The notes under the pieces were generated by a model. That model was not told where the DNA came from. It did no database searches and saw only the letters and a list, made by a program, of their open reading frames with translations. The position numbers were made by a program, and so were the translations under genes. A stretch of DNA of 64,000 nt, taken from assembly GCF_003334385.1 (NCBI RefSeq), contig NZ_QOWN01000017.1. One strand, given 5' to 3'. Shown piece after piece: positions 62,476-64,000 of the stretch. The DNA comes from Escherichia coli (GTDB lineage Bacteria; Pseudomonadota; Gammaproteobacteria; Enterobacterales; Enterobacteriaceae). The first letter of the stretch is position 1. Each line of letters starts with the position of its first letter.

Positions 62476-62610
62476 TCATCCACGGCAGTGGCACCACATT
62501 TCAAACATTCGCTTCACAACTTCACGACAGTAGAAGCCATCAACATCTCGCGTCAGGTCATAGTGATTGCCGTAACGCTGGTGGACCCATCGTTCAAATG
62601 CTTTATTCAT
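62476..62610 (-). CDS. hypothetical small phage protein (44 aa)
   Basis: ORF MNKAFERWVHQRYGNHYDLTRDVDGFYCREVVKRMFEMWCHCRG with AAGGAAG Shine-Dalgarno, start 3 nt after the stop of the upstream ORF (translational coupling); below ORF-track size cutoff. Confidence 0.35.
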   Translation of the reverse strand: MNKAFERWVHQRYGNHYDLTRDVDGFYCREVVKRMFEMWCHCRG

Positions 62611-62613
62611 TCT

Positions 62614-62856
62614 TTACTTCCTTTTTATGGCTCGTAATTTTTTCAGGTGCTTTTCCTGCTCAGTGTCCGCGAGAATTTTGCGGTACTCCTGGTGGTCAAT
62701 ATGTTCGAACAGGCAGTTTAACTCACCAATGCGTACCCGCCCGGATCGTCCGTCCACCCGTCGAAAGAACACTGAGTGCTCAGTGATGCGAGTAATCACC
62801 ACGGGGTATCCGGCTCTGTCCGTGTATATCTGACCGCGTTGAATCAAAGCGAACAT
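62614..62856 (-). CDS. hypothetical small phage protein (about 80 aa)
   Basis: Track ORF 62614..62892; ATG start MFALIQRGQIYTDRAGYPVVITRITEHSVFF... at 62856; co-oriented in int-xis early-left operon. Confidence 0.5.
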   Translation of the reverse strand: MFALIQRGQIYTDRAGYPVVITRITEHSVFFRRVDGRSGRVRIGELNCLFEHIDHQEYRKILADTEQEKHLKKLRAIKRK

Positions 62857-62940
62857 GTGGTTATCCCCATCGACAAATCGAGAACACAACAAACGCTGCT
62901 GCGAATACCACCCCCAGAGTTACGATTGCATCAGGCCAGC

Positions 62941-63885
62941 TCATTGATTCACCTCCTGCCTGTCGTCCGGCATTCGCTCACTACAGCTTATCCAACCATC
63001 CGGAGTTACCGGAACTTGTGGAATGGCTGTCTGCTCTCGAACGTCATTAGGCGCTATAGGTTCTGCTGCCAACTGACTGGCATATTTGTTAATGGTAACG
63101 ATAAGCTCTTGCTCAGCCTCATCCAGACAATCACCGATACCTCGCCTGTCACCGTCAAAATCATCGAAATCGGCACGAATCCTGGCAACCTTCAGGATTG
63201 CGGACAACACCTCACTAGGAATTGCCGGATAGTTGGTTGACGTTTCCGCGATTTCCCGAAAATTATTGGTTGACGAATTCTTGTTTTCCCGAAAGTTTCC
63301 GGACTGAAGCATGGCGGCGCGGCAGGCGTTCCATATTTCGGCAGCAATATCGCGCTCGCTATCGGTTAATTTGTACGTTGAAACATAGCCAGAGAGCATT
63401 TCTACGTTTTCCGGAGTTGCTTCTTCAGGCACTACCGGTGCTGGCTCACGTATTACAGGCTCGCCCATGCGTGATTCTCCCTGCGCCTCTTTCACCATGT
63501 GGTCATTGATTTGCTCCAGTCGCCGAACGTGCTCATCAGCTTCAAGCGCTCGCCGTTTCCAGATGGACAGGTCTTCACGAGCGCCCTGATATGCGTCACC
63601 GTATTCGCCGTTAAATACTGGCGCTGGCGGGGCGATGCGTCCAAGCAACTTATTTACCTCTTTCGCCATCGCGTCATATTTATCTAAATAGCGATTAGCT
63701 TCTAAGCAGACTCGGTGCATCTGATCTGAGTTAACTCGTTTAACTGGATCTGCTTCCAATGATGCCAGTGCAATTCGTGCCAGTTCTTCCGCTTCTTCTG
63801 CTGGCAGTACAACGTTGCTACCCGGTCCGTATGTTTCGCGCCACTGCTTGATTGTCAGCAGTCGCCCTTTGGTAATAGTGATCAT
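62941..63885 (-). CDS. hypothetical phage protein (314 aa), acidic, with C-terminal PDGWIS..ERMP motif
   Basis: Track ORF; ATG with upstream AGAGGATAA RBS; co-oriented with int/xis; no recognisable catalytic motif. Confidence 0.55.
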   Translation of the reverse strand: MITITKGRLLTIKQWRETYGPGSNVVLPAEEAEELARIALASLEADPVKRVNSDQMHRVCLEANRYLDKYDAMAKEVNKLLGRIAPPAPVFNGEYGDAYQGAREDLSIWKRRALEADEHVRRLEQINDHMVKEAQGESRMGEPVIREPAPVVPEEATPENVEMLSGYVSTYKLTDSERDIAAEIWNACRAAMLQSGNFRENKNSSTNNFREIAETSTNYPAIPSEVLSAILKVARIRADFDDFDGDRRGIGDCLDEAEQELIVTINKYASQLAAEPIAPNDVREQTAIPQVPVTPDGWISCSERMPDDRQEVNQ

Positions 63886-63888
63886 GGG

Positions 63889-64000
63889 TTATCCTCTTAG
63901 CGCCACAACGCGCACTTCTGGGTCAAAGGATGATGAATTTTCATCTGTAATATCAGCAACATGACCTACAAAGTCGTTATACTCACACTCTGATTGTTCA
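63889..64000 (-). CDS. 3' end of a further phage ORF (gene begins beyond window end)
   Basis: Minus-strand frame open from window end to TAA at 63889-63891 (...FVGHVADITDENSSSFDPEVRVVALRG), stop 3 nt before the next ATG. Confidence 0.3.
   Translation of the reverse strand, partial: EQSECEYNDFVGHVADITDENSSSFDPEVRVVALRG

Follow-up and report, generated by a model that had tools for sequence, protein, structure and literature searches.

A 27-codon open reading frame, a DUF4222 gene and a shuffled DUF551 gene beside xis in a lambdoid prophage at mlrA of Escherichia coli

In lambdoid phages, the hotspots for accessory genes include the int-proximal and exo-xis regions. We analyzed this part of a lambdoid prophage inserted at mlrA (yehV) in Escherichia coli (assembly GCF_003334385.1, contig NZ_QOWN01000017.1), in a 64,000-nucleotide stretch of DNA referred to here as the window; the genes of interest occupy positions 62476–64000, upstream of the excisionase gene xis. 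In phage lambda, the exo-xis genes (ea8.5, ea22, orf61, orf63, orf60a) are small, have unknown or regulatory functions, and influence the choice between lysis and lysogeny (PMC7093339, PMC3824215). Ea22-type proteins are described as acidic proteins of mosaic architecture that form oligomers, with DUF551 among their portable C-terminal domains (PMC10834534), and are reported to favour lysogeny (PMC7093339). A second precedent comes from the DUF4222 family, for which a literature search found one studied protein, RgdR (ECs1581). This 99-residue protein is encoded on O-island 51 of E. coli O157:H7, a P4-like satellite (phage-inducible chromosomal island, PICI); it is an activator of the LEE1 promoter and of type III secretion and a repressor of motility, its binding to DNA is weak and non-specific, and its mechanism is not known (PMC3378721, PMC10877973, PMC6092414). 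The RGD tripeptide of RgdR is important for its activation of the type III secretion system (PMC3378721).

The locus resembles lambda in layout, with its genes at the equivalent leftward-strand position just upstream of xis. It differs in showing no homology to lambda Ea22 or to lambda's xis-adjacent open reading frame (ORF), and in carrying yfdPQR-like genes at the position that exo, bet, and gam occupy in lambda. We consider it fairly probable that the stretch is the int-proximal end of a leftward lambdoid gene string at mlrA, in which six tightly coupled genes comprise a shuffled DUF551 gene and a conserved block. An initial annotation, made from the sequence alone, had described four co-oriented ORFs upstream of xis at the int/xis-proximal end of a yehV-integrated prophage. 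All four are present on the minus strand, and gene order in E. coli EC2 agrees with the location; a fifth co-oriented ORF, of 27 codons (62861–62944), had been missed.

Read from upstream to downstream on the minus strand, the string begins with a partial ORF (MSLTVRQLISKLRKMPPEAVVVWQGY..., 63889–64000), the 3' part of an ORF whose start lies beyond the end of the window. In the 100%-identical EC2 record it encodes 62 residues (WP_016232201.1) and belongs to phrog_6161 (E 7e-21, function unknown); its TAA stop lies 3 nucleotides before the ATG of the 314-residue ORF (62941–63885). The 27-codon ORF follows, then an 80-residue DUF4222 ORF (62614–62856), a 44-residue ORF (62476–62610), and xis. 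The DUF4222 ORF is taken from its ATG; a mechanical ORF list gives 92 residues from a TTG. Successive gaps from the 62-residue ORF to xis are 3, -4, 4, 3, and 18 nucleotides, and every start has a Shine-Dalgarno sequence. Translational coupling of the 44- and 80-residue ORFs, as the initial annotation proposed, is plausible: the 44-residue ATG stands 3 nucleotides (AGA) after the DUF4222 TAA, and its Shine-Dalgarno sequence, AAGGAAG, lies inside the end of the upstream ORF.

These are not chance ORFs, because they have support from PHROG families with E-values from 7e-21 to 2.4e-53 (44 residues, 1.6e-30; 80 residues, 1e-33; 314 residues, 2.4e-53 and 1.4e-34). The ORFs had been reported to hold no assignable motifs and to be beyond functional inference. 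In fact, the 80-residue protein contains Pfam DUF4222 (PF13973; E 1.1e-13, residues 4–54, model positions 2–53 of 53), the 314-residue protein belongs to the DUF551 family, and the 44- and 62-residue proteins fall in PHROG families. None has a demonstrated function, as had been supposed, but the DUF4222 family has its studied member in RgdR. The ORFs are thus ordinary members of known uncharacterised families, and the result is mainly a clean-up. New here are the hidden 27-codon gene, a precise account of how DUF551 was lost, and a hypothesis on the structure of RgdR-family proteins.

The same annotation had regarded the stretch as cargo. It is very unlikely, in our view, that these genes serve exclusion, defence, or anti-defence. 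That reading draws on the general character of the region as an accessory hotspot, on the strong mosaicism of the 314-residue gene across phages, and on the possibility of exclusion through small membrane peptides. Against it, a PADLOC search with five proteins returned a single chance-level match (E 0.021; no anti-defence library was searched), and NCBIfam holds no family for the 44-, 80-, or 314-residue ORFs and gives two chance-level matches for the 62-residue ORF. The known relative RgdR is a regulator, and most of the stretch is a conserved block. On these comparisons there is no sign of defence or anti-defence genes in the stretch.

The 27-residue peptide, DUF4222 protein, 44-residue peptide, and Xis are encoded in what comparison of related loci indicates is a conserved block, not variable cargo. 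Across 73 distinct DUF4222 loci, part of which were collected with the 27-residue pattern itself, the 27-codon ORF is directly upstream in 72, the 44-residue peptide is present in 64, and a xis-like ORF in 61. Numerous lambdoid prophages from E. coli, Shigella, and Salmonella carry the block, among them Stx1- and Stx2-converting phages (Stx, Shiga toxin). The 44-residue ORF starts 3 nucleotides past the DUF4222 stop in nearly all related loci examined, and its product (PHROG 3871, function unknown) largely conserves C28, C40, H41, and C42. Only the 314-residue gene, upstream of the block, is mosaic and variable.

This arrangement could also mean that the DUF4222 protein and the 44-residue peptide are accessory or regulatory factors of site-specific recombination, which help or time excision by Xis and Int. 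In most loci the two genes stand just before xis with 3 nucleotides between them (64 and 61 of 73), and the pair adjoins two different xis alleles, of the MQTIIYQ... and MGNVIQL... types. The 80-residue protein is small and very basic (pI 10.1), like architectural DNA-binding proteins, and the four Cys/His residues of the 44-residue peptide are largely conserved. We nevertheless judge such a role unlikely. RgdR is encoded beside a primase gene in a P4-like satellite, more than 2 kb from the integrase, and acts on host promoters (PMC3378721; PMC6092414). In addition, lambda has no homologue of the 44-residue peptide at the equivalent position; DUF4222 was not compared with lambda directly.

The 27-codon ORF (MSWPDAIVTLGVVFAAAFVVFSICRWG) was exposed by aligning the window with phages BP-4795 and PhiR5_1, and fills an apparent 84-nucleotide gap between the 314- and 80-residue ORFs. 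Its ATG overlaps the TGA of the 314-residue ORF (ATGA) and its TAA lies 4 nucleotides before the DUF4222 ATG. The Shine-Dalgarno sequence, GGAGGTG at 62950–62956, is made by the codons for QEV at the end of the upstream gene. This accounts for the ...QEV(N/K)Q ending of DUF551 proteins, since those codons carry the ribosome-binding site of the next gene. The upstream gene itself may encode a truncated DUF551 protein, a full DUF551 protein, or an unrelated "...YLERNGLISVEDILR" protein.

Two samples show the constancy of this ORF. The first, which is unbiased, comprises 86 occurrences of the DUF4222 start motif, 80 of which came from loci fetched with the DUF4222 protein. Ten variants, falling into three divergent classes, precede the motif; nine have 27 codons, and the tenth has an extra G in a run of Gs. 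The second, a scan of viral contigs and other loci with a degenerate pattern, yielded at least 202 copies, at least 49 DNA alleles, and at least 24 peptides, a set that is biased because the pattern forced 11 residues of the peptide. All of these copies have 27 codons. Among the matches listed, GGAGG or GAGGA precedes almost every copy, and in each case with a traceable upstream ORF (184/202) the start overlaps the stop of that ORF. Fourteen DNA alleles encode one identical 27-residue peptide.

Four alleles are independent of the pattern: those of the window, of BP-4795, of locus L210 (MIWPEAFAITGVAMAIAFLVYVICRCG), and the MTWPEAL allele. Pairwise comparison of three of them gives 64–77% DNA identity, with 15/26, 14/28, and 10/18 of the differences at third codon positions. 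Over all four, the ratio of nonsynonymous to synonymous differences (pN/pS) is 0.36–0.48 in frame, against 0.85–4.8 in the other sense frames. On pattern-free codons only, dN/dS is 0.51, a value that carries no information because these codons are variable by construction. The four peptides have W3, P4, D/E5, A6, G11, R25, G27, and a hydrophobic core in common.

The core has a hydropathy of 2.2–2.6, which fits one transmembrane helix, and the peptide is predicted to be a single-pass membrane micro-protein. It probably inserts in the inner membrane with the N-terminus out and the C-terminus in, a topology suggested by the positive-inside rule because D/E5 is N-terminal and R25 is C-terminal. 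KdpF and the type I toxins (Hok, Ibs, TisB) are similar in having about 27 residues and a single hydrophobic helix flanked on both sides by a charged residue. The KdpF family scored 14.7 bits against a cut-off of 26.85, and for one related 27-residue allele only. As a type I toxin, the ORF was rejected: unlike the toxin genes it has neither a promoter above chance nor an Rfam antisense RNA match, and it is translationally coupled in an operon, its start overlapping the upstream stop. The underlying scans found 5 promoter-like sites where 5.2 were expected, none of them upstream of the 27-codon ORF, and no Rfam match at E <= 1 in 59500–64000.

Alternatively, the ORF might be a mere translational relay to the DUF4222 gene, with a functionless peptide, or might go untranslated. 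Its start overlaps the upstream stop, its stop is 4 nucleotides from the DUF4222 start, protein databases do not contain the window allele, and the ORF is passed over by most gene callers. We think this improbable, since seven residues and the hydrophobic core are kept at 64–77% DNA identity and the length is always 27 codons. Furthermore, at several loci no other gene stands between the ORF and a terminator-like hairpin, so that there is no partner downstream to which it could be coupled. The nin-type region of locus L096 (2628–2760, 3029–3241) provides an example: here the ORF lies upstream of NinB-like genes, directly followed by a CCCCGGA...TCCGGGG hairpin with a T-run, and then by a Hok/Gef-family toxin gene. 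A similar arrangement, with the ORF next to a Hok/Gef gene, is found in L210 (1106–1727).

The ORF is largely invisible to current resources. Records identical to the window carry no PGAP annotation for it, the window allele was not found in a 15-billion-protein collection, no PHROG or NCBIfam family covers it, and a literature search with the peptide motif found no paper. Other alleles are sporadically annotated "hypothetical" or "prophage protein". Clusters at 90% identity that hold 27-residue peptides list mostly DUF551 proteins as members; among those read, DUF551 proteins of 67–185 residues do not contain the peptide, and short 'partial' entries read through in the peptide frame. The names of these clusters are thus misleading for the peptide. 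Separately, a programmed frameshift that would fuse the peptide to the DUF551 protein was rejected, given a stop 12 codons upstream of the ATG in the peptide frame and the lack of fusions in the mixed clusters.

The 80-residue DUF4222 protein, a distant paralogue of RgdR, is like it a small (80–100 residues) basic protein encoded by a mobile element. The RgdR sequence, taken from the Sakai genome, contains the same Pfam domain (E 2.7e-23). The two proteins share an identical calculated isoelectric point (pI) of 10.09, a basic C-terminal tail, and an RG(D/Q)IY.D motif that aligns at the start of the domain. They differ in that the window protein has no counterpart of RgdR's 16-residue N-terminal extension, and in that RgdR is primase-adjacent in a P4-like satellite whereas the window protein is xis/int-adjacent in a lambdoid phage. 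The window subfamily comprises 16 clusters at 50% identity in 1.8 billion proteins.

Structure prediction had been proposed as a check by the initial annotation, and was informative for this protein but not for the 314-residue one. An AlphaFold2 model built from 16 sequences is confident, with a mean predicted local distance difference test score (pLDDT) of 81.7; in it, a basic helix of 25 residues comes after a small beta-barrel. The model suggests that DUF4222 is a small Tudor/SH3-like beta-barrel with a long basic C-terminal helix. Among the closest known systems are the RNA-polymerase-binding small barrels of CarD and of the C-terminal Tudor domains of UvrD/PcrA; lower-ranked fold matches include the KOW domains of NusG and Spt5, Mfd, and RapA. 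Foldseek found nothing in the PDB below E 1e-3, and a viral structure library returned uncharacterised small barrels only, two of them just below E 1e-3 (best E 7e-4). Sequence searches of solved structures with the 314-, 80-, and 44-residue proteins gave nothing significant. Because the fold is very common, "mini-CarD" is taken as a lead that fits the RgdR phenotype, not as a result. In one 371-residue protein (P0166), seven separate stretches match residues 10–31 of the DUF4222 protein, which gives it the look of a relative built from tandem repeats of the first strands of the barrel.

The remaining large gene of the string encodes the 314-residue protein, described by the initial annotation as acidic with a proline-rich central linker and a terminus resembling the start of a DUF551 domain. 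These features are all evident. The protein has a pI of 4.74 (55 D+E against 37 K+R) and a proline-rich segment, EPVIREPAPVVPEEATPE, at residues 141–158. Residues 1–95 match phrog_3323 and phrog_660, and residues 183–297 match phrog_14306. Pfam DUF551 (PF04448) is present as an incomplete domain, at model positions 1–16 of 68 only (independent E-value 4e-4); this vestige, GWISCSERMPDDRQEV, spans residues 297–312 (62950–62997, minus strand), with the tail PDGWISCSERMPDDRQEVNQ.

The domain had been thought cut short by a stop, and a frameshifted longer gene had been raised as a possibility to be checked against related prophages. That comparison shows that DUF551 was lost by a clean in-frame deletion, not by a premature stop or a frameshift. 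The closest relatives are annotated DUF551 or "Eaa". Those of 364–375 residues, 97–99% identical over 98–99% of the query, carry the whole PF04448 domain and end in ...HWMPLPEPPQEV(N/R)Q; the rest of the 314-residue protein is orthologous to them. Locus L208 holds the same mlrA prophage with a 367-residue version, and in the DNA alignment the window is shorter by exactly 159 nucleotides (53 codons), in frame. The junction is at about 62956–62961, where ...GACGACAG is joined to GCAGGAGG; it reads ...CCGGACGACAG followed by GCAGGAGGTGAATCAATG, and CAG is present at both deletion endpoints in the full-length copy. The native tail QEVNQ, the native stop, and the ribosome-binding site are retained. 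We propose that the last five codons were spared because the next gene has its ribosome-binding site and its overlapping start there.

Described DUF551/'Eaa' proteins (BP-4795 ORF5, Ea22 variant V2 of Stx phages, CPS-53 YfdS) share with the 314-residue protein the sequence PDGWISCSERMP leading into DUF551, a tail of the form ...QEV(N/K)Q, and the place upstream of the 27-residue and DUF4222 genes. The 314-residue protein differs from them in its deleted 53-residue core, and it has no Ead_Ea22 domain and no lambda Ea22 similarity. Its mosaic, acidic architecture is analogous to that of Ea22-type proteins, from which a pro-lysogeny role would be speculation. An Ea22 identity, the label borne by the PhiR5_1 homologue, was ruled out: a Pfam search found no Ead_Ea22 (PF13935), and BLASTP gave E 0.94 for lambda Ea22 and E 4.9 for the prophage's own Ead_Ea22 protein. 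The homology to lambda ea or recombination genes that the initial annotation had named as a refutation of its reading was not found for any of the ORFs.

PGAP starts the gene at M56, which gives 259 residues and leaves 165 nucleotides (63721–63885) of conserved coding sequence unannotated. This start is doubted because the 55 upstream codons match phrog_3323 and phrog_660 and are nearly invariant in 40 relatives, and because the ATG at 63885 has a good Shine-Dalgarno sequence (AGAGGA, 6 nucleotides upstream). The M56 start is probably wrong and the 314-residue form the true one. In strain SCU-104, PGAP labels the N-terminal codons as a separate 'DUF551, incomplete' pseudogene. The intervals that bear on the start are, besides 63721–63885 of the window, L001 11922–12089 and L005 5952–6086.

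On the strength of such annotations, the ORF might be viewed as a decaying pseudogene minus its functional domain, and the stretch as prophage debris. In this prophage, 52 of the 68 DUF551 model positions are gone, the N-terminal 55 codons are left unannotated or, in one strain, called a pseudogene fragment, and a neighbouring gene is frameshifted. We regard decay as quite unlikely, on the grounds that the deletion preserves the frame exactly, all 314 codons remain open, and the N-terminus is conserved in 40 relatives. The deleted allele is also found beside different upstream modules, and annotation of full-length 314-residue copies exists elsewhere (P0001). In the fetched loci, 89/202 matches have the deleted tail, among the matches listed, as does a 253-residue protein with a different N-terminal half on 861 contigs; because of these numbers, the deleted form is a common, established allele and not a private lesion.

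Taken as a gene string rather than debris, the locus would have two parts. The first would be a recombination-shuffled gene for an acidic, helical DUF551/'Eaa' protein that has lost the DUF551 core; the second would be a block travelling with xis and int, made up of the 27-residue membrane micro-protein, the DUF4222 protein, and the 44-residue Cys/His peptide. The comparisons above show the identities and families of the genes, their coupling geometry, the deletion, and the conservation of the block; the roles that follow are inferred. After induction or infection, the early-left promoter probably transcribes these genes together with xis and int, as it does the lambda exo-xis genes. An RgdR-like mode of action is probable for the DUF4222 protein, which would modulate transcription as a small, basic factor of low DNA specificity; its Tudor-like barrel may dock on RNA polymerase while the basic helix touches DNA, as in CarD. 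If DUF4222 proteins were CarD-like, the pleiotropy of RgdR and its lack of sequence-specific DNA binding would be explained. The 27-residue peptide could target a host membrane protein, for example altering envelope physiology or superinfection in the lysis-lysogeny decision. We advance only tentatively, as possible rather than probable, the joint proposal that the 27-residue peptide is a genuine micro-protein of the host inner membrane and that DUF4222 proteins, including RgdR, are miniature CarD-like factors.

Several observations, in addition to the bias of the pattern-derived allele set, weigh against this account. The early-left promoter is outside the window. Terminator-like sites in 60000–64000 exceed those in shuffled sequences (10 against 4.2 +/- 2.0 expected), and one minus-strand site, at 62785–62770, is inside the DUF4222 ORF. 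Several of the hairpins in this interval are on the plus strand inside int, and the excess may reflect composition. The similarity of the DUF4222 protein to RgdR is distant, with 41% identity across 27 residues (pairwise E 6e-4) but 19% when the full alignment is counted, and the RGD of RgdR is RGQ in the window protein and in most subfamily relatives. The AlphaFold2 model of the 314-residue protein, from a 40-sequence alignment, consists of helices only and is unusable at a pLDDT of 40; the protein is accordingly predicted to be all-helical with low confidence. For the 27-codon ORF, the wobble-matched antisense frame has a pN/pS of 0.27–0.42, and substitution statistics cannot separate it from the sense frame. 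The sense frame was chosen because of its conserved start, stop, and Shine-Dalgarno site and its orientation in the operon. Antisense coding was rejected, as the wobble-matched frame is without a start codon in 4/4 flanked alleles and the other antisense frames contain stops or non-conserved starts.

These genes merit attention for three reasons. With the block present in many E. coli, Shigella, and Salmonella prophages, even a modest function would be widely relevant. The DUF4222 fold hypothesis offers a testable mechanism for RgdR, a regulator of type III secretion in enterohaemorrhagic E. coli. In addition, the 27-codon gene is a concrete conserved candidate for a phage micro-protein mostly missed by standard annotation.

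The last 4 kb of the window runs from the host genes yehW, yohO, and mlrA into the lambdoid prophage. E. coli EC2 and three isolates from wastewater match positions 60800–64000 at 100% identity, and 48 complete E. coli genomes cover at least 80% of this interval. In EC2 the order is osmF-yehYXW-yohO-mlrA, then int, xis, the flagged ORFs, an Ead/Ea22-like gene, yfdPQR-like genes, and a LexA-family repressor gene, all leftward. The tyrosine integrase gene (60883–62169, minus strand) abuts the phage/host junction inside mlrA, and the xisR-type excisionase gene (Pfam DUF1233; 62203–62457, minus strand) is 18 nucleotides downstream of the 44-residue ORF.

Beyond the window, the EC2 prophage carries CPS-53-like yfdP, yfdQ, and yfdR at the place of lambda exo, bet, and gam, and its immunity region is annotated with a LexA-family repressor, Cro/CI, and YmfL (L001 15300–17216 and 18299–19818). 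YfdR is reported as a DnaA binder (PMC4776307). At the host end, the insertion point of the prophage falls within the 5' end of mlrA (60161–60892, minus strand). The mlrA frame upstream of ...PVTLRAWQRRYG reads ...K*KLAKSISLPLI; the N-terminus before this point is not the host's and therefore derives from phage-side sequence. PGAP still calls a 233-residue MlrA despite the insertion. Insertions at this 5' site presumably impair MlrA-dependent regulation of curli and biofilm formation.

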